In this document: positions 10,747-64,000 of the stretch, in pieces
Numbering within the stretch: position 1 is the stretch's first letter
Layout: each line of letters starts with the position of its first letter
Source of the DNA: an uncultured Trueperaceae bacterium
GTDB taxonomy: Bacteria; Deinococcota; Deinococci; Deinococcales; Trueperaceae
Reading direction: 5' to 3'
DNA length: 64,000 bases
Assembly: GCA_963799485.1 (NCBI GenBank)
Contig: CAWCXJ010000012.1
Location: 64,001-128,000 of the forward strand
Notes under the pieces: model-generated
Database searches by the model: none
What the model was told of the DNA's origin: nothing
Seen by the model: the letters and a program-made list of their open reading frames with translations, nothing else
Made by a program: the position numbers and the translations under genes

Positions 10747-11856
10747 ATGCTGCCCGAACCCTTTGCCGAAGCCCAAACCTTGCCCGAAAGAGGCCGCGTT
10801 CTCTGCGCCATGTCGGGCGGGGTGGACTCGTCGCTGGCGGCAGCGCTCCTTAAAGAACAAGGCTACGAGGTGCAAGGTGCGATGCTGCGGTTCTGGCCCG
10901 ACGAGCGCCCTAAAGGTGCTTTCGACCTCTGCTGCAGCCCCGACGCGGCTTATGACGCTCGCCGCGTCGCCGATAAGGTAGATGTGCCCTTCTATCTACT
11001 CGACGCCAGGGAGCAGTTCGATGAGGTGGTTATCAGCCCGTTTGTACCGGCTTACGAAGGTGGGCAGACCCCCAACCCCTGCGTGTGGTGCAACCGCGAG
11101 ATCAAATTCGGGACGTTCTTGCACAAAGCGCGGCGGCTGGGCTGCGAGTTTGTTGCTACCGGACATTACGTAAAACGTATTGACGGCCCAAACAGCGTAG
11201 AACTTCACCGGGGGGCAGACGATTCCAAAGACCAGACCTACTTTTTGTGGGCCTTAAACCGGGACGTCTTGCCGCACCTGCTCTTTCCGTTAGGCGATAA
11301 AACCAAACCTGAAGTGCGTGAACTCGCCGAGGCCAGGGGCTTTATCACGGCGGACAAACCCTCGTCGCACGGGCTCTGTTTTATCACGAGCAGCGTCAAG
11401 GACTATCTGAGCGACTTCAGCACAAGCTCGCCGGGAGCTGTACTCGACGCGTCGAACGGTTATAAAAAGGTTGGGCAGCATAACGGCGTGCAGTTCTACA
11501 CCATCGGGCAGCGGCGCGGGCTGGGGATGTATCACTCACACCTCGAGCGCTTTGTGATCGAACTCCGCGCCCAAACAAACGAAGTCATCGTCGGCACACG
11601 CGAGATGTGTCACTGGCGGGGTCTCAGCGCCGAACAGGTCAACTTGTTGCTGCCTGAAGACGAGCTACCTGAGCGGGTGCAGGTGCAGACGCGGTATCGG
11701 CAAACCTCGGTTCCTGCGACGCTAAAGCTGGTGGGGGGGAGGCTCGAGCTGCGTTTCGACACCCCGATGTTCGCTGTTACCCTCGGTCAATCGGCGGTAA
11801 TTTACGACGGCCCGCGTCTTTTAGGCGGCGGCGTCATCAGCGAGCGCCACAGCTAA
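10747..11856 (+). CDS. mnmA: tRNA 2-thiouridylase
   Basis: AMSGGVDSS, TPNPCVWCN, ATGHY, KDQTYFL, YTIGQRRG, GQSAVIY. Confidence 0.96.
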   Translation: MLPEPFAEAQTLPERGRVLCAMSGGVDSSLAAALLKEQGYEVQGAMLRFWPDERPKGAFDLCCSPDAAYDARRVADKVDVPFYLLDAREQFDEVVISPFVPAYEGGQTPNPCVWCNREIKFGTFLHKARRLGCEFVATGHYVKRIDGPNSVELHRGADDSKDQTYFLWALNRDVLPHLLFPLGDKTKPEVRELAEARGFITADKPSSHGLCFITSSVKDYLSDFSTSSPGAVLDASNGYKKVGQHNGVQFYTIGQRRGLGMYHSHLERFVIELRAQTNEVIVGTREMCHWRGLSAEQVNLLLPEDELPERVQVQTRYRQTSVPATLKLVGGRLELRFDTPMFAVTLGQSAVIYDGPRLLGGGVISERHS

Positions 11857-11930: not shown

Positions 11931-12479
11931 GTGCTGTGGATTGTACTTGCCGTGCTCGTTATCGTCGCCCTCGTCGGGGTCACGTTTTATAACCGTATCA
12001 CCGTCCTGGAAAACCGTATCAAAAACGCCTGGGCGCAGATCGATGTGCAGCTTAAACGCCGTAATGACTTGATTCCGAACTTGCTCGAGACCGTTAAAGG
12101 CTACGCGGCGCACGAGCGCGGGCTGTTTACCAAACTCGCTGAAGCGCGTGAACGCTCACTTCGGGCGACCACCGTCCCCGAACAAGCCGAAGCCTCGAAT
12201 CAGGTGACAAGCGCCCTGCGGAGCGTTTTCGCCGTAGCCGAAAACTATCCTGAACTTAAAGCCAACCAGAACTTTTTAGCGCTGCAAACCGAGTTGTCCG
12301 AAACTGAGGACAAAATCGCTTACGCGCGGCAGTTCTACAACGACGCGGTGCTGCAGTTCAACAATACCATTCAAACGGTTCCTGGCGTCTTCGTTGCCGG
12401 GCCGATGGGCAAAACGCCACAGGTGATGTTGGAAACGCCTGAAGCGGAGCGCGCCGTACCCAAGGTATCGTTCGGCTAG
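11931..12479 (+). CDS. lemA: LemA family protein
   Basis: N-terminal TM, WAQIDVQLKRRNDLIPNL, AENYPELKANQNF. GGAGG RBS. Confidence 0.94.
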   Translation: MLWIVLAVLVIVALVGVTFYNRITVLENRIKNAWAQIDVQLKRRNDLIPNLLETVKGYAAHERGLFTKLAEARERSLRATTVPEQAEASNQVTSALRSVFAVAENYPELKANQNFLALQTELSETEDKIAYARQFYNDAVLQFNNTIQTVPGVFVAGPMGKTPQVMLETPEAERAVPKVSFG

Positions 12480-50965: not shown

Positions 50966-51060
50966 GTCGATTGCGGCCTCAACAACAGCTCGAAGGCGTT
51001 TGCTATGCTAACCTACTGAAATCGAGAGATGGATTTTACATCGCCCGAGGAGCTACTTAT

Positions 51061-51273
51061 ATGAATGGAAACGGTTACAAGACAGATTTCTTATTTGCGA
51101 GCCCGTCACTACTTTCAGGCGCGGCGAGAGCTCTAGACATGTTCGCTGTTTTTGATGAATACAACACCAGTAACAGCGTTGAGGAAGCTGATAGACGCGC
51201 AATAGAAAGTGACTGGGGTATTGTCGGACAGGATATGGCAGCCGCCATTCAGAAGTACGTAAAAGAAAAGTAG
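51061..51273 (+). CDS. Small hypothetical protein, AT-rich islet
   Basis: GAGG RBS + ATG. PSLLSGAARALD..EEADRRAIESDWGIVGQDM. Directly upstream of the DUF2335-like gene. Confidence 0.7.
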   Translation: MNGNGYKTDFLFASPSLLSGAARALDMFAVFDEYNTSNSVEEADRRAIESDWGIVGQDMAAAIQKYVKEK

Positions 51274-51277
51274 CTGC

Positions 51278-51782
51278 ATGGGGAGAAAGTCTAGATTTAG
51301 CAGGCAGGCAACAGCTACCCCAAAAGCAAAGAGACGAGCAGAAGCAGCAAAGGAAAGAGGCACCGCAAGGTGTCCTTCCTTTTGATGTAGAAAGAACTGA
51401 AATTACTGCAGAATATTTTCAAGGCCCTTATCCACATCCTAGATTGCTAGCGGAATATGACCAAGTGAAACCCGGTTTAGCAGAAGAGATAGCAGTAGGT
51501 GTCAGAGAACAGAGGCGACATAGACAGCAACTTGAACGTTGGAAGTTGTTGAACGATATAATCCAATCGTACATAGGTCAGGTCTCAGCTTTCGCTATAG
51601 CTGCTCTAGCTCTCTTTTTTGGATACAGAATTGTGATTTCCGGCAATGAAGTAGCAGGGTTTTTTACAGGCTTCTTCGGTCTTACTTCTTTGGTGACAGT
51701 TTTTATAGTGGGAAAAAACCAGCAGAGGAGAGATCTACAGAGTAAATCACTCCCCTCAAAAGAAATAGAGAGACCCAAGTAA
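51278..51782 (+). CDS. DUF2335-like membrane protein with disrupted or non-canonical 5' end
   Basis: FQGPYPHPRLLAEYDQVKPGLAEEI..EQRRHRQQLE plus two TM helices. The conserved motif lies upstream of the first in-frame start (TTG 51444), and ATG 51278 is in another frame. Confidence 0.65.
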
Positions 51783-51931
51783 GGTGATTTCCGTTTCCTG
51801 AAATGTTGGGTATGGCAGGTATTGTCCAGTTTGAAACGTTCTCGGTACGAGGTTTGTCCTATAGCATGTGCGCTCCCAGATGAGACCTGAGTCAGCCCTT
51901 AGTAGATGTGCCAAAAGCTACCAACATTTCG

Positions 51932-57469: not shown

Positions 57470-60256
57470 GTGAAATCTTTTGGTGCCGCATTTATTTTGC
57501 TATTTTTGAGCCTATTGGGATTTGCCTTTGCCCAAACACCGGTCAACACGGCAATTCAAAACACGGCGACGGCGACCTACACGAACGCCGCCAATCAGTC
57601 GCTGACGGCAACGTCGAATACCGTTACGACGACGGTTTTGCCGATCTACCGCTTTGAGATTACCCCCAACGGAACCGACGCACCTTTTGTTTCAGGTAGC
57701 GGAACCGGGGCCGGTCAGAGCCAGACAGGTGCAGCGGGCGGTACGGTCGTCTTTACCTATCAGCTCGAGAACCAGGGCAACACGGCGAACAACACCATCA
57801 ACCTCTCAGCCCTCGACTCTGCTACCGACGATTTTCAGTTCGGTACCAAAACGATCTATCTGGACAATCCGACCGCCGGGATTCAGGGCCAACTCGACCC
57901 GCAAGACTCCCCGGTAACCTCGGTGACGCTGCCGTACAACAGCACGCCGGTCACGCTTTTCGTCGAAGCGGCCATTCCCGGTACTGCGGTGGACAACCAG
58001 GTCGGCAGGCTCAACCTCTCAGGCGCTTCAGCTACCGGCGGCGAAACCGATGCGAACAACTGGGCCGAACTCGCCGCGTTTACCAACGCAGCCTTGACCT
58101 TGAACAAAACCGCGACCGGCAACGTGATTCCGGGCGGCACCATCAGCTACACGGTTTCAGGTGCGAATACGGGTGGGACGAACCCCTACGCGGTAACAGG
58201 CGTTGCAAATATCTCCAGCGGGGGCGTCACTGCGCCTCGAGACGGCATCCTTGTTTCGGACGTGATTCCTGCGGGCCTCAGCTACGTACCGGGATCGCTT
58301 ACGTTCTCGGGTTCCAATACGGCGTCTACAACCGTTGTCCTCTACTCGACCAACGGCGGGACGACCTGGGTTACGGCGCAACCAGCGAGCGGCGTCAATG
58401 CGGTTGGGGTCTATATCGGCGGTACTGCCGGTCAACGCGTCTCGACAACGGGCGGCGCGCCGCTCTCCTACAGCTTTACCTTTAATGCAACAGCTCCGGC
58501 AGGCGCAACCGCCGGAACGGTCTATAACAACACCGGTACCATCCGCTACGACAGCAACGGCGACAGCGACGGCGCAGACGCCGGTGAAGTGGTAACGACT
58601 ACGCCCGCACCGACGACCGTCGATCCGTCGGGTACCTTTGCCGTCGGGCCGTACACCTTCCCGACCGCCGGAGCCTCCGGCAGCTACACCGTTACGGGCG
58701 AGGGTTACACCGTCTCCCGCACCGACGACGCCCAGACGATTGCCTCGGCGCCTAACGAACGCGAGGTCAGCTTCCGGCACACGCTGGGGAACGCTACGAA
58801 CTTTGGCGACACCTTTACGCTCAGCAGCACTTTACCCACATCACTCGCCAACAACACGCCTCCCGGTTCAGTGAGCTTTTATGCGGTCAACGGCGACGGC
58901 TCGCGGGGTGCACTCATCACCGCGCCGCTGGCAGTAGCCGCCGGTGCTACCGCAGACTTCTATACGGTCGTAACGTTGCCCGCCGACTATACAAGCGCCA
59001 CACCGCTCGACTTTACCGTCACAGCGACCTCCACCCAGACCGGCAACACCGATACGACGATAGACACCATCAGCGAAGTGACCGAGGCCCAGGCCGTCGA
59101 TATCGGCAACTACGCCGGAAACGGCACGCCGAACAACGCTTCGATCGACTTTCCGGCGCAACCCGGCAGCACCGTCAGCATCCCGCTGATCGTCCGTAAC
59201 AACGGTGCTGACCCCGACACCTTCGGTCTCAGCGCCGTCATCGCGCCGCCCGGTTACACCGTGACCATCTACGGGGATGATAATTGTAACGGACGTATCG
59301 ATGGCCCCGACACAGAAGTCAGCAGCAGCAACGAACTCGAGCCCGGTACCTTCGAGTGCTTTATCCTTCAGGTCACCATCCCTACCGGAGCCGCGCCCGC
59401 GACCTACGACGTCACGGTTACGGCGACGAGCCAAAATGACCCGAATATCAGCGATTTCATCACCGATACCGTCACTGTAGGACTGCTCGAGAACTTTACC
59501 TTTACGCCTACCCCGCAAGCTCAGGCGACCAGCTCGACCGTACCTGTCGTCTACACCCACACGATCACCAATAACTCGAACGAGGTCGCCTCGGTAGACC
59601 TGACCTTTACCGAAGAAGATGCGACGGCTTGGACTTACGAGTACTCACTTACGGGTGCTGACGGCTCCTACACGACTACCTTGCCGACGGGTATCTCGGT
59701 CGCAGCCAACGGCGGCACGCAAGCCATCTACGTCCGGGTAACGCCTGACCCGGCTGCAACCGAGGGCACGACCGACGCTTTTACCCTGACCGCGACGCCG
59801 ACCTACGGCGCAACCACGGGCGCGGCAGCCTCCGTGACCGACACGACCACCATCGACCAGGAGTACTTCGGTCAGCTCGACCTGGACAAAACCGTCAGCG
59901 TCAACGGTGGAACTGCAGGTACGGACAACGACGCCGAACCCGGCGACACCCTGACCTACACCGTTACCGCGACCAACCTCGGGGCGGGTGCGCTCAACAA
60001 TGTTCAGCTTACAGACGCCGTCCCTGCAAACACGACTTTCGTCTCCGCTACGGCGACTGCCGGCGGCGGCCTCGCCGGACAAACGGTGCTTTACTCCACG
60101 AACGGTACGACCTGGAGTACGACGCCGCCTAGTACGCTCGCTACCGGCAGCATCTATGTGGGCGTCAGTACAAACGGCGACAACAACGTCAACGCCAACG
60201 ACAGCTTCCCGGCAGACGGCGTGCTGACCCTGACGCTGGTTGTCACCATCGACTAA
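57470..60256 (+). CDS. Secreted DUF11/Ig-like repeat protein (putative major filament subunit)
   Basis: Signal peptide MKSFGAAFILLFLSLLGFAFA, Thr-rich beta repeats, K-T..PG.T..Y....N..D..P DUF11 motifs, DxNxD Ca-binding-like loops. Confidence 0.85.
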   Translation: MKSFGAAFILLFLSLLGFAFAQTPVNTAIQNTATATYTNAANQSLTATSNTVTTTVLPIYRFEITPNGTDAPFVSGSGTGAGQSQTGAAGGTVVFTYQLENQGNTANNTINLSALDSATDDFQFGTKTIYLDNPTAGIQGQLDPQDSPVTSVTLPYNSTPVTLFVEAAIPGTAVDNQVGRLNLSGASATGGETDANNWAELAAFTNAALTLNKTATGNVIPGGTISYTVSGANTGGTNPYAVTGVANISSGGVTAPRDGILVSDVIPAGLSYVPGSLTFSGSNTASTTVVLYSTNGGTTWVTAQPASGVNAVGVYIGGTAGQRVSTTGGAPLSYSFTFNATAPAGATAGTVYNNTGTIRYDSNGDSDGADAGEVVTTTPAPTTVDPSGTFAVGPYTFPTAGASGSYTVTGEGYTVSRTDDAQTIASAPNEREVSFRHTLGNATNFGDTFTLSSTLPTSLANNTPPGSVSFYAVNGDGSRGALITAPLAVAAGATADFYTVVTLPADYTSATPLDFTVTATSTQTGNTDTTIDTISEVTEAQAVDIGNYAGNGTPNNASIDFPAQPGSTVSIPLIVRNNGADPDTFGLSAVIAPPGYTVTIYGDDNCNGRIDGPDTEVSSSNELEPGTFECFILQVTIPTGAAPATYDVTVTATSQNDPNISDFITDTVTVGLLENFTFTPTPQAQATSSTVPVVYTHTITNNSNEVASVDLTFTEEDATAWTYEYSLTGADGSYTTTLPTGISVAANGGTQAIYVRVTPDPAATEGTTDAFTLTATPTYGATTGAAASVTDTTTIDQEYFGQLDLDKTVSVNGGTAGTDNDAEPGDTLTYTVTATNLGAGALNNVQLTDAVPANTTFVSATATAGGGLAGQTVLYSTNGTTWSTTPPSTLATGSIYVGVSTNGDNNVNANDSFPADGVLTLTLVVTID

Positions 60257-60267
60257 GACTCTTTTGG

Positions 60268-60304
60268 GCTGCTCCTCCGGTCGCCAGCGGAGGAGCAGCG
60301 TTTT
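60268..60304 (+). terminator. Intrinsic terminator between the two DUF11 genes
   Basis: GCTGCTCCTCCG-loop-CGGAGGAGCAGC followed by GTTTT. Confidence 0.75.
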
Positions 60305-60426
60305 ACCCAAACGCCTACAAGCCCGGTTCAAACACGACGCCCAGCCGAACCCACTCGGCTCTACTGCTCGACCTTAAGTCGTCCGCCTGCTTGGTATCAG
60401 TCGCCGGAGACTGGTGAGGATGAAAC

Positions 60427-63400
60427 GTGAAGTTAATACACAGTTTATTTTTTTTGCTGCTCTTGGGGGGAGCTTTCGCTGCGGGGACGCCTGCCGGAAC
60501 GGAGATTAAAAACCGGGCCGAGGCGACCTACATAAACCCGGATGGTAACGTTCAAACGGTCGCTTCAGACGAGGTTGTTACGACCGTTTTACCCGTTTAT
60601 GATTTCGTCATTTTGCCGAACGGGGCCAGCCCCGACGCGCCCGGTCAGACCGTTACGGCAGTAGCCGGAAGCGCGGCGCAGTTTTTTTATACCGTTACAA
60701 ACCAAGGCAATATAACAGACACCATCACCCTGACGCTCGCTCAAGCCGGGGACGACTTTAATCTGAGCAATGTTCGTATTTATCTGGACGAAGACGGCAA
60801 CGGCGTTTTAGACGCGGGTGAACCGCTCGTGACTGAAGTCCAACTCGGTGCGGGCGAATCCGCCCAGCTTATCGTTATCGGAACCGTGCCGGAGGGCACG
60901 GTGTCCGGGGCAACTGCCAATGTCAACCTCGAGGGTGTTTCAGTCGGGGTTCCGGACAATACCGATACCGACAACTGGGCCAGAGCCGTCCTCGGCAATG
61001 ATAACGGCGGTGGTGGGAACGTTGCGGGCGTCAACATCGGCAACAGCGACGGCGACCCGGACACCGCGCCGAACGACGGGGGCCTTACCGAGTCGGCGCA
61101 ACCCGGCAAAGCGGTGAGTTTCCCGCTCGAGCTAACCAATACCGGCAGCGCACCCGACACCTTCGACCTGAGTATCGTCAACCTGCCCGACGGCTGGACG
61201 GCAGCGCTTTTTGCCGATGCGGATTGCGACGGCGAAGCCGACAACGAAGAACCTGTTACAACGGTAGGGCCGCTCGAGCCCGGTGAAAACATCTGCTTCA
61301 TCCTTACGGTGACGCCCGCAGCGGACGCACAACCCGGTTCGGTGCCGGTTACAGCCACCGCCGTAAGCCAAAGCGACCCTTCAAAACGGGACAGCATCAC
61401 CAACCTCGTCATCATCGGCGATAACGGCGGCGGTCAGGCGGGCGCGGAAATCGTCCTCGAGAAGTCCGTTTCGCCGGCGGGTTCGGTCGTGTCCGGCGCG
61501 ACCCTGACCTATACGGTTACGGCGATCAGTACCGGCGACGCGGCGGCGACAGGCGTCAGCGTGAGCGACCCGTTGCCCGCCAATACCGCGTTCGTTTCGG
61601 CTTCGGCGAGTACGACGCTGGACGGCGCAACCCTTTATTCGGCGGACGGCTCGAGCTGGTCTACTGCGCCCCCGAGCAGCCTAGAGCCCGGGGCGAGCCT
61701 TTACGTCGGCGTCGATACGAACGGCGACGCCACCCTCACGGACGCCGACACTTTCGGGCCGAACGAGACCTTGACCCTGACGCTCACCGTGCAGGTTACG
61801 GGCGGCCCGGAGGTGAGCAATCAGGCTGAGGCAACTTACGGCGACGGCTCGGCCTCGTCGGAAACGGTGACGACACCTGTAGACAACGCTGCGCCGGAAC
61901 CCGAACCCGCCCGCTGCGCCGTCTCGGTCACACCCGACGGCACCGAAGAAGTGCCCGGTCAGCTCGTTCAGGCACTGCCCGGCAGCACCGTCTACCTGCC
62001 CTATACGCTGCAAAATACGACACCGCAAAACATCGCTGAACCGGGTGACGCGGACAGCACCTTTATTCTGAGTGCAGACACGCTTACGGGCGAAGTCGCA
62101 GGTCTCCGGATTATTGCCGACAGCAATGCCGACGGTGTACCGGACGAAGGCGAAGAGGTTGTAAGTCGGCTAGACCTCGCTGAAGGGGAGAGCGCGGCGC
62201 TGCTCTTAGAGGTCACGCTGACCCCAACCCCCGGCACTTACCTCGTCAACCTCGCCGCTAGTTGCGAAGGTGCGGACGAAGACGCCGTAGACTCGAGCGA
62301 TACGGTCAACGTCTCACAGATCGATGTTCCGGCCCTAAACCTGGCAGCCCCCCAAAAAACTGCCGTCCCACCCGCAGGCACGGCGCTCTACGCGGGCGCG
62401 GCGGTGTCTTACGTCGTCACCTTTACCGCGCCGGAACTGCCTCTAGAAAACGTCGTCGTGCGCGACGTTTTAGACCCCAAACTGGCGCTGCCGACGACGT
62501 ATACGACCGGCACCGTCACCGACCCGGCGACCGGACTCAGCACCGAAGCGGTCGCTACCTTAGAGAACCGCACACTGCGCTGGACGTTTACCGAAGTTCC
62601 GGCAGGAATGACCGTGACGTTAGCTATCGAGACGCAAGTCGCCGCTGACGCCGCCGTTACCGAAACCGTGGACAACACCGCGTGCATCGCGGCTTTGAGC
62701 TTGAGCGAAGTGTGCAGCGCCCCGGTCACGCACCCGCTCGCGCCGGTTGAGCTGAGCTTAAGCAAAACCGCGCTCTCGCCGAGTGTCACCGTCGGCGACA
62801 CCTTGACCTACGAACTCGTAGCGACGAACCTTTCAGATGTTGTCCCGGTCACAGAAGGGACGCTGACCGACACCTTGCCGGAGGGTCTCGAGTACCTCCC
62901 GGACAGCGCCGTACGGCTGGACTCGGCGGGAACGACCGAACCCTTTGAACCCACCCAAACAGGTCTCCTCGTCTGGAATCTGCCCGACCTCGCGCCCAGC
63001 ACGTCGCTGACGCTGCGTTTCGATGTCCGCGTGACGGCGGCGGCGCTCGGGCAAGAGACGCTTCTTAACCGCGCCGAGTTCGACGCGCTCGGCAGTGACG
63101 GCGGGGTCGTCGCCTCGCAAGAAGATGAAGCGGCGGTCGCGGTCGAAGCGGGGTTTTTCGTACCCGGAGCGTGCTGCTCGGACACCTTTATATCGACAAG
63201 GACGACAGCGGTGATTTCAACCGAGGCGATAAGCCTGTGAAAGACGCGCGGCTGTATCTCTCCAACGGGCTTTCAGTCGTAACAGACGCGTTCGGACGCT
63301 ACACCGTCACCGATTTACCTGCGGGTCTGCTCGCGCTCCGGCTCGACAGCACGACGACGCGGGGGCTCGAGCCAGCCCGCAACGAACGTACCGCTGCCAA

Positions 63401-64000
63401 AGACGGCCTCTGGCGTGTGCGCTTGCAGCCCGGTCTGCTGACCCGCCAAGACATCGGCTTCGTGCCGCCCCCCGTAAAACCCACAGAAAGTACCGTAAAA
63501 CCGACACCTCAGGCGGCAGAAACGCCGACGCCGAATCTAAATACAGACACGTCAGACCCCGACCTGCCCGAAAGCCCGGTCGAGACCCTGAGCGGCGTCA
63601 ATATCATCGCCCCGGAACCGGGTACCTTGCTCCGGGGCCGGAGCAGCGTCCCGATTGTCGTCGAAACGCCGCTCGGCGACGTGGTGAGCTTGAGCGTCAA
63701 CGGTCAGCTCATCCCTACGTCGCTGCTCGGCAAACGCGTGCTGGACGAAGTGCGGCAGCGGCAGCGCTTTGAATACGCCGGAGTGCGGTTCGAGCCCGGT
63801 GAGAGTGAAATCGTGGTGCAAAGTCAAGCTGCCGGGGGCGCGGTGACCGAAACGCGCGTGACGATTGCCACCGCCGGCCCGCCTGAACGCATCGTAATCA
63901 GGCCGCTTGAAGCATTGACGGCTGACAGTGCCGCGCCGCTGGCGTTTACGCTGCGCCTCGAGGACAAAAACGGTTACGCGCCGCAAGATACATTTGTCAC
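60427..64000 (+). CDS. Large secreted DUF11 repeat protein; frameshift near 63150; runs off window end
   Basis: Signal peptide, AGTPAGTEIKNRAEATY, several DUF11 domains. After GCGGGGTTTTT a protein-like frame continues VFRTRSVLLGHLYIDKDDSGDFNRGD..VTDAFGRY in the -1 frame. Confidence 0.8.

Follow-up and report, generated by a model that had tools for sequence, protein, structure and literature searches.

Analysis of a 64,000-nucleotide stretch from an uncultured Trueperaceae bacterium (positions 64,001 to 128,000 of contig CAWCXJ010000012.1, assembly GCA_963799485.1; hereafter, the window) identified two consecutive genes, encoding protein 1 (P1) and protein 2 (P2), whose products probably take part in a self-ligating fiber made of split domains. 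Such a fiber would need neither sortase nor chaperone, would combine strand complementation with a Lys-Asn isopeptide lock, and would be rooted in a giant β-barrel. In the model we favor, P1 would be exported by Sec, and cleavage of its signal peptide would expose a two-strand hairpin carrying Asn31. The hairpin would slot into the open domain of the adjoining subunit on the distal side and complete its fold, after which a Lys807-Asn31 isopeptide would form spontaneously, with Asp849 as catalytic residue. P1 repeats would constitute the shaft, and P4, an acceptor-only, adhesin-like protein encoded downstream, would cap the distal end. P2, which has a donor hairpin only, would end the chain, and its fused C-terminal barrel would root the fiber. 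What the analysis shows of this model is the split architecture and its conservation, the existence of partners that have only a donor or only an acceptor, and, as a prediction, the docking.

P1 (57470..60256, 928 aa; forward strand, like all features of the window described below) is the proposed shaft subunit, with a donor hairpin at one end and an open acceptor domain at the other. The gene is defined by its open reading frame (ORF), its start and its homologues. Its likely start is the GTG at 57470, preceded by GGGGG at 57460-64; a longer version in the ORF list (987 aa) starts farther upstream. The signal peptide, read from the sequence, spans residues 1-21 (57470..57532), with the cleavage site between AFA and QTP, and residues 1-19 have a predicted local distance difference test (pLDDT) score below 50 in the structural model. 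Straight after it comes the donor hairpin (57536..57640, residues 23-57), made of two short strands, IQNTATATY and SNTVTTTV, and a connecting loop, and detected by a donor hidden Markov model (HMM) with an E value of 5.5e-17. The proposed isopeptide residue, Asn31, is encoded at 57560-57562.

At the other end of P1, residues 798-928 (59861..60253) form the open acceptor domain, which belongs to the DUF11 family, now renamed CLIPPER. P1 matches PF01345 (DUF11) with 36.5 bits (cut-off, 24.6) and TIGR01451 with 58.6 bits (cut-off, 24). The domain contains Lys807 (59888-59890) and Asp849 (60014-60016) and runs to the C-terminus of the protein, VLTLTLVVTID; the last two strands of the fold, which bear the Asn, are absent. 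A complete DUF11/CLIPPER-like domain is found inside P1 (58091..58624), where the acceptor HMM has its second match; this copy has its own Lys, Asp and Asn-bearing hairpin, and its D264 and N354 are nearly invariant among homologues. All three residues of the triad are present in the internal domains of P1 and P2, while the C-terminal domain of P1 does not hold the triad by itself, its Asn being found at the N-terminus of the protein instead. The original prediction had described a P1 that starts with a hairpin and ends with a DUF11 domain lacking it, and had pointed to the codons at 57560, 59888 and 60014; the ends were confirmed, and the codons are exactly those of N31, K807 and D849. We also considered that the end of P1 might be a sequencing or frameshift artifact. 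No further hairpin is encoded in any of the 3 frames of the 170-nucleotide spacer that follows the stop codon, so the truncation of P1 does not result from a frameshift and this explanation was ruled out.

The predicted structure of P1 (AlphaFold2) is all-beta and made of tandem immunoglobulin (Ig)-like domains, with a mean pLDDT of 85.8 and a predicted template modeling score (pTM) of 0.47. Comparison of the whole model using Foldseek yielded generic tandem-Ig matches only (HYDIN, PrgB Ig and alpha-2-macroglobulin), with template modeling (TM) scores of 0.14 or less. As a separate observation, the open domain of P1 contains an insert that resembles the Asp-box (BNR) motif of sialidases, S-x-D-x-G-x-T-W (LYSTNGTTWS, around 60080-60110), and a similar insert is found in the internal complete domain, around 58340-58370. 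When an acceptor profile was compared with the PDB, sialidase Asp-boxes were among the matches, all of which were weak.

The split is not peculiar to this genome. A search of 5.8 billion proteins retrieved 37 relatives of P1, Thermus filiformis and Meiothermus being the named sources, and 22 homologues (887-975 aa, with identity down to 32%) were aligned. In 22 of 22, the hairpin lies directly after the signal peptide and carries the Asn, and the protein ends at the same strand; three of them have short tails of 2-11 residues, and the Asn strand is found in none. The alignment has 47 invariant columns, among which are N31, K807 and D849; within the hairpin, I29, N31, S49, N50 and V56 are invariant. 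The same architecture was seen in 19 orthologues of P1 spread over several phyla, in which the Asp is invariant, the Lys nearly so, and the protein ends 0-2 residues past the last strand. Because the 22 homologues share their ends, the split can be regarded as a property of the family rather than an accident of one gene.

To examine the fit of the two halves, residues 690-928 and 22-200 of P1 were submitted to complex prediction as separate chains, with alignments supplied, in three runs. The median score was 0.62, compared with 0.00 for the best of 3 controls; of 157 solved complexes, 116 attain the mark adopted for this score, as do 2 of 215 mismatched pairs. Agreement of contacts between runs was at least 96%, and the pLDDT of the partner was at least 73. 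In the predicted interface, hairpin residues 22-59 face acceptor residues 799-855 and 909-928, and the pairs with the lowest error include D849-N31, D849-A33 and K807 with A33, S49 and V52.

These data bear on the view that there is no complementation at all, the hairpin being a part of the first domain of P1 and the C-terminal domain a shorter, self-stable variant. The view draws on the fact that the Pfam DUF11 match stops near profile position 96-98 of 114 even in the complete domain of P2, so that profile coverage alone is no proof of truncation. However, the hairpin was placed on the acceptor even though its chain also included domain 1, which makes contact with the acceptor at two residues only (103-104). 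Furthermore, the hairpin HMM also matches the strands that close the complete domain of P2, every family member ends at the same strand, and acceptor-only proteins keep the Lys and the Asp without an Asn strand of their own. We therefore give hardly any credence to this view.

P2 (60427..63240, 937 aa) is the proposed donor-only base subunit or, more precisely, the N-terminal part of a longer gene. It matches DUF11 (117.8 bits), TIGR01451 (75.4 bits) and TIGR04226 (66.6 bits). Its mature N-terminus carries a donor hairpin, as originally predicted (60487..60594, residues 21-56, IKNRAEATY...SDEVVTTV; donor HMM E value, 1.6e-11), with Asn29 at 60511-60513. An internal, complete DUF11/CLIPPER domain with its own hairpin is found at 61441..61881 (acceptor HMM E value, 4.8e-34, residues 339-457; hairpin HMM match at residues 460-483). 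This domain is 53% identical to residues 823-927 of P1 (E value, 4.3e-18), in agreement with the earlier reading that it resembles the last domain of P1 and continues into the hairpin that P1 lacks. When the donor hairpins of P1 and P2 are compared, 8 of 9 alternating residues are identical (I, N, A, A and Y in one strand; V, T and V in the other), and only N50 differs, with D in P2. The alternating residues are presumably those that face the core; if so, an acceptor that accepts one hairpin should accept the other.

The genes downstream of P1 had been proposed for inspection in search of an outer-membrane anchor, and a candidate was found in the same gene as P2. In a genome of the same genus, G005, the P2 orthologue is a single 2,739-aa protein with an N-terminal hairpin. 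A tblastn comparison with this protein aligned its residues 766-1603 in one frame and 1602-2739 in another, with the junction at 63153-63159, hence P2 and the frame from 63171 on are one gene, split by a single-base frameshift in the GGGGTTTTT run at 63153..63159. The continuation of the base subunit (63171..64000 in the window) extends to contig position C12:130542 and comprises 1,123 aa in this frame. In the last ~700 aa, at least 32 regular antiparallel strands were predicted by AlphaFold2 over about 550-700 residues. Pfam gave no match on this part, and it groups with protein Atlas clusters named 'outer membrane protein'. The C-terminal part of the base subunit is thus predicted to be a large outer-membrane β-barrel. 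Thermaceae-like loci encode P2 and the barrel in two separate, adjoining genes.

A peculiarity was observed in the base protein of a Latescibacterota/Krumholzibacteriota-type locus (P0038; L022:12708-18539), in which a complete OmpA peptidoglycan-binding domain (residues 616-714, E value 1.5e-15) separates the Ig stalk from the barrel. The presence of this domain would make the segment periplasmic, and would fit a stalk that threads outwards through its own barrel. The OmpA domain was not found in the other base proteins scanned (P0039, P0040 and P0058), nor in those of the order Deinococcales.

The third component is encoded downstream of the window. In G005, the locus contains, in this order, the P1 orthologue, the 2,739-aa hairpin-bearing protein and a 2,199-aa protein, P4, which has a signal peptide and no hairpin. 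The P4 of G005 contains an N-terminal CshA_NR2 adhesin domain (5e-49) as well as GEVED domains, so that P4 looks like an adhesin; in the genome under study, the CshA-type head of the G005 orthologue is missing. In another P4, that of G039, a C-terminal match to DUF7927 breaks off at position 95 of a 132-position profile. All 7 loci of the order Deinococcales that were examined combine P1 with an acceptor-only P4, whose final domain contains the Lys and Asp motifs and is cut short at the same strand as that of P1. Six of the seven have a P2 with a donor N-terminus, and in the other, G025, the start of P2 is unresolved. Because P2 is donor-only and P4 is acceptor-only, their orphan halves can be satisfied only between chains.

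A cross-phylum scan, performed with one genome per species and a 3-sequence alignment of distant P1 family members, detected 42 loci. The record titles include Latescibacterota, Krumholzibacteriota, Gemmatimonadota, Spirochaetaceae, Thiotrichaceae/Thiothrix (Thiotrichales), Photobacterium sp., Fidelibacterota and Abditibacteriota. Inspection of 13 loci from outside Deinococcales revealed P1 in all 13, a donor-bearing barrel protein (1,900-2,200 aa) in most, and an acceptor-only protein in 10; some of these loci end at contig ends. The order of the three genes differs between clades.

A census of hairpins and acceptors was then made in 45 loci (676 ORFs of at least 200 aa) with an iterated hairpin HMM, as the version trained on P1 missed many hairpins of base subunits. 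The matches were N-terminal in 78 cases and internal in 4, the internal hairpin of P2 being one of the latter. An N-terminal donor was found in 26 of 34 barrel proteins, and the 8 without one come from genes that are split or frameshifted. Terminal acceptors amounted to 73, of which 39 belong to proteins that also have a donor and 34 to proteins without one. On a larger scale, a barrel profile was searched against 1.84 billion cluster representatives (50%-identity level), and the barrel family was found to have 5,048 representatives at E ≤ 1e-3, 3,883 at 1e-10 and 2,632 at 1e-30. Among the best 150 of the 5,048 matches, 121 have a length of 1,500 aa or more, and 82 of these 121 start with a donor detected by the HMM. 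As the hairpin HMM still missed N-termini that bear the motif, a regular expression with a control was added: it matched 25 of the 39 long barrel proteins missed by the HMM, compared with 137 of 968 control windows.

Two side observations concern these loci. In many of them, a small gene just upstream of P1 encodes a signal peptide and a single open acceptor, with a mature length of ~130-160 aa (L019:14924-15550, on the reverse strand; L022:9206-9907; L024:9305-9988; L026:4835-5458; L045:9238-9843; L056:9108-9914). Such a protein could be a minimal cap. The copy in G035 has Ile at the position of the catalytic Asp, and might bind a hairpin without ligation, in a chaperone-like manner. No gene of this kind is found in the window. 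In addition, the locus of a Thiothrix metagenome-assembled genome (MAG) contains two P1-type genes, L054:619-3612 (997 aa) and L054:10001-12652 (883 aa), that flank the base gene. Both products have a donor and an acceptor, and they may be major and minor shaft subunits.

The chemistry of the proposed lock can be compared with that of a solved domain. The CLIPPER crystal structure 9IFR holds a Lys-Asp-Asn isopeptide (K715/D748/N806), as described in the available part of the source (PMC12617251). The spacing is compatible, as N806 is 22 residues away from the end of its domain and N31 of P1 is 26 away from that of the hairpin. PDB searches with the complete domain of P2 and with a 19-sequence acceptor profile gave no significant match and did not retrieve 9IFR; the residue correspondence is thus one of spacing and motifs, not of alignment. 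Among acceptors of the P1 class, the Asp is present in 39 of 39 and the Lys in 39 of 39 (31 by alignment and 8 by eye, behind insertions), and 69 of 79 N-terminal donors have the Asn. The 10 donors that lack it have Ser, Ala or Gly instead; all are base subunits of one clade, whose named records are Latescibacterota or Krumholzibacteriota (L024, L027-L030, L039-L041, L045 and L046), and none is a P1. Among the acceptor-only proteins, 6 of 34 lack the Asp, and three tips of the Abditibacteriota clade (L057-L059) have Gln and Asn at the Lys and Asp positions. P1 keeps the full triad in both of these clades.

The gaps in the triad indicate that some junctions are probably non-covalent, and the same natural junctions, whose fold tolerates the absence of the residues, favor the idea that complementation occurs without any covalent lock, as in chaperone-usher or TasA fibers, the Lys, Asp and Asn serving for folding only. 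Against this idea, the triad is complete in all the P1 proteins examined, the same triad is bonded in the solved DUF11 domain (PMC12617251, in the part available), and D849-N31 is among the lowest-error predicted contacts. We consider a lock-free fiber very unlikely. Rather, complementation seems to be universal, and the lock optional at the end junctions and always present in P1.

Just after the P1 stop codon, where the original prediction had placed a terminator, a stem-loop followed by GUUUU is indeed found (60268..60304). It has a perfect 12-bp stem at 60268-60299 and a folding energy of -27.3 kcal/mol (z, -4.28), and ranks first in stability among 57 control windows of 45 nt in the locus. 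Owing to its short T run, it went unlisted in a simple scan for terminators. We propose that it is either an attenuator/terminator or a transcript-stabilizing hairpin. Strong stem-loops 3' of the P1 stop were found in 12 of 15 loci from several phyla, and in 10 of them the stem-loop ranked first among 34-71 control windows. A conserved stem-loop at this place would be expected if P1 is a subunit made in excess.

A different arrangement of the same parts is that the hairpin of P1 folds into the C-terminal domain of the same molecule, giving a covalent ring of ~8 Ig-like domains; only the P2 donor and the P4 acceptor would then pair in trans, with the adhesin placed directly on the barrel protein. 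Two ends have their highest effective concentration when they belong to a single chain, and Gram-positive pilins are known to contain nested or discontinuous domains. In the monomer model of P1, moreover, the hairpin has a pLDDT of 81-91, which implies that it is docked somewhere and leaves room for a ring closed in cis, and an invariant triad is equally expected from such a ring. However, the linkers are short, with ~4 residues between the hairpin and domain 1 and ~8 before the acceptor (DSSP), and the model, with a pTM of 0.47, gives no confident overall shape. The length of P1, which varies between loci from 575 to 997 aa, also makes a ring of fixed geometry unlikely. The likeness of the P1 and P2 donors at 8 of 9 core-facing residues, the constant company of donor-only and acceptor-only partners in the operon and the stem-loop, which fits a subunit in excess, also argue against closure in cis, which we regard as quite improbable.

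Another possibility is a fixed-length adhesin of three parts, P4-P1-P2, with one copy of each and no P1-P1 polymerization. Donor and acceptor counts balance at one copy each, and no computed result addresses stoichiometry. However, docking of the P1 donor on the P1 acceptor is predicted, with the proviso that close cousins of the true partner may pass as well. P1 also keeps Lys, Asp and Asn where the base donors lack the Asn, and keeps its Asn where the Abditibacteriota tip lacks the Lys and Asp; residues kept in spite of the loss in the partner need P1 itself as a partner, although closure in cis would explain their retention too. The near-identical core faces of the P1 and P2 hairpins, the conserved stem-loop after P1 and the two P1-type genes in the Thiothrix locus are further arguments against a three-part adhesin, which thus appears unlikely. 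Altogether, the shared donor face, the retention of the triad in P1 and the stem-loop favor a homopolymer of P1, with P4 as its cap and P2 as its terminator.

Several observations weigh against the self-ligating fiber, in addition to the gaps in the triad and the well-predicted hairpin of the P1 monomer. The docking rebuilds a known fold from two pieces, and its success may reflect likeness to solved domains or memory of them; complex prediction is, moreover, blind to the difference between cis and trans. The barrel is predicted with moderate confidence (pLDDT, 67.5) and has no specific family: the Foldseek matches (LptD, FimD, SlpA and SprA; TM scores of 0.16-0.29) are generic only. The barrel may also be the pore through which the fiber passes, but this is a guess. 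The P1 family is patchy, with a match in 16 of 41 related genomes. In the genome under study, one frameshift between P2 and the barrel and three in the tip gene occur within ~7 kb, while P1 is intact; those of the tip gene lie outside the window (L003 ~10858-10910, 11409-11415 and 12118-12128) and show no obvious homopolymers. The four frameshifts reflect either decay of the system or assembly error. Among public reads, 0.17 of the sampled words were found in one DNA run, whose 8 short contigs show 99+% likeness but do not cover 63153-63159. No RNA run is listed for this locus among public sequencing runs.

With these reservations, each inference of the original prediction gained independent computational support. 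Completion of the C-terminal domain by the N-terminal hairpin is backed by the docking scores, and pairing in trans by the donor-only P2 and acceptor-only P4 of conserved loci. A Lys-Asn isopeptide assisted by Asp is consistent with the frequencies of the three residues in P1 acceptors and in donors; the role of P1 as the major subunit, with the recurrent stem-loop; and that of P2 as anchor or base, with its fusion or adjacency to the predicted outer-membrane barrel. The downstream tip subunit, the barrel and the broad phyletic spread are additions to that earlier picture. The covalent bond, P1 homopolymerization, the direction in which the fiber would grow and its export by way of the barrel are inferences.

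Elsewhere in the window, a stretch of low GC content (50970-51800; 0.45, versus ~0.60 around it) contains two small ORFs of 100 and 112 aa. It is flanked by an ATP-binding cassette (ABC) permease gene and by an amidohydrolase-like gene, and may be an inserted element.

How the proposed fiber compares with known systems was also considered. Sortase (PF04203), PapD chaperone (PF00345) and usher (PF00577) families have 0 matches in this genome, which is 99.99% complete; three Gram-positive controls matched the sortase profile, E. coli and D. radiodurans the chaperone profile, and control genomes the usher profile. No sorting motif is visible at the end of P1 (VVTID), and no LPXTG was noticed. Pfam autotransporter families gave no match; the passenger-then-barrel order is shared with autotransporters, but at least 32 strands are predicted here, versus 12 in type Va.

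Within the CLIPPER family itself (DUF11, PF01345; fibrillar adhesins, 9IFR), the positions of the triad are alike, with the Lys in the first strand, an Asp, and the Asn in the first strand of the closing hairpin, to judge from the part of PMC12617251 that was available. The difference is that the terminal copy is split here between chains, one protein having the Lys and Asp at its C-terminus and another the Asn at its mature N-terminus. In the available part of the CLIPPER survey, bonds are described as intramolecular only, and the word 'intermolecular', which occurs 5 times, is used of other systems (PMC12617251).

The likeness to chaperone-usher pili (Fim, Pap) is extensive. In both cases an N-terminal donor completes, here by prediction, the incomplete Ig-like fold of the subunit distal to it; the parts comprise a tip adhesin with an acceptor only, a shaft subunit with donor and acceptor, and a donor-only terminator; and the gene of the major subunit comes first and is followed by a stem-loop, in an operon that includes a large outer-membrane barrel. 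In contrast, members of the PapD and usher families are absent here, the donor is a two-strand hairpin instead of a single strand, and the joint is predicted to be locked covalently. The terminator shares its chain with a barrel of at least 32 predicted strands to which FimD bears only generic resemblance (TM ~0.26), and the subunits are multi-domain proteins of ~900 aa instead of single pilin domains. By prediction and comparative anatomy, the subunits have an incomplete fold; the system works like a chaperone-usher pilus in this respect, which does not amount to family membership.

Donor strands and spontaneous bonds have been brought together before, according to the accessible portions of two reports. 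Archaeal threads (Saci_0406) involve Sec export, N-terminal donor strands and proposed spontaneous intermolecular isopeptides without sortase (PMC9715654), and C. perfringens BsaA combines a donor strand with a proposed sortase-free isopeptide, a mechanism termed 'exchange and lock' (PMC11580942). Donor-strand complementation, proposed sortase-free intermolecular isopeptides and Sec-exported subunits are thus common ground. In the threads, however, the N-terminal amine of Asp24 bonds Asn57 and links subunits n and n+2 (PMC9715654). Both systems have unrelated folds (the thread head domain, and a TasA-like fold) and one-domain subunits, are found in archaea and in a monoderm, respectively, and, as far as those portions tell, lack an outer-membrane barrel. 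Haloarchaeal tat-fimbriae, whose description mentions DUF11, were set aside: in the part available, they are non-covalent DUF1102 fibers, compared by their authors with TasA (PMC11821415).

Sortase-assembled pili of Gram-positive bacteria are covalent fibers of tandem Ig-like domains with Lys-Asn isopeptides, and the TIGR04226 match of P2 is of the RrgB D2 type; their intersubunit bond is, however, made by sortase at LPXTG, whereas no sortase was found here and the hosts are diderm. SpyTag/SpyCatcher pairs provide another parallel, since a peptide with one reactive residue joins a larger part with the other residue and the catalytic acid (PMC6539128, PMC8878318). Those pairs, as presented in the available excerpts, were engineered from CnaB-type and other pilin and adhesin domains, while the split proposed here is natural, CnaA-like and used for polymerization. 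Our literature searches turned up no published description of a split-domain fiber system. In principle, its nearest relatives are archaeal threads (PMC9715654), BsaA (PMC11580942), insofar as the portions available describe them, and chaperone-usher pili.

A broader proposal is that these loci represent an unrecognized class of pilus, spread over several phyla of outer-membrane bacteria: a natural Tag/Catcher fiber built without chaperone, sortase or ATP, whose base would be usher and terminator in one chain, the fiber being exported through, and tethered to, a barrel of at least 32 strands. In our estimate, this proposal has about an even chance of being right. If the self-ligating fiber is real, it would constitute a further route of surface-fiber assembly, which unites donor-strand logic and self-made covalent bonds and dispenses with the enzymes of either pathway. 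The system appears to be common, judging from the thousands of barrel-family representatives (5,048) and from the presence of loci in several phyla, and would explain many annotations of 'DUF11 repeat protein' and genes that stop in the middle of a domain. It would also offer natural, co-evolved and possibly orthogonal peptide/protein ligation pairs for protein engineering, some of them derived from thermophiles. A question raised by these observations is how folded subunits of 900 aa cross the outer membrane with one dedicated barrel.

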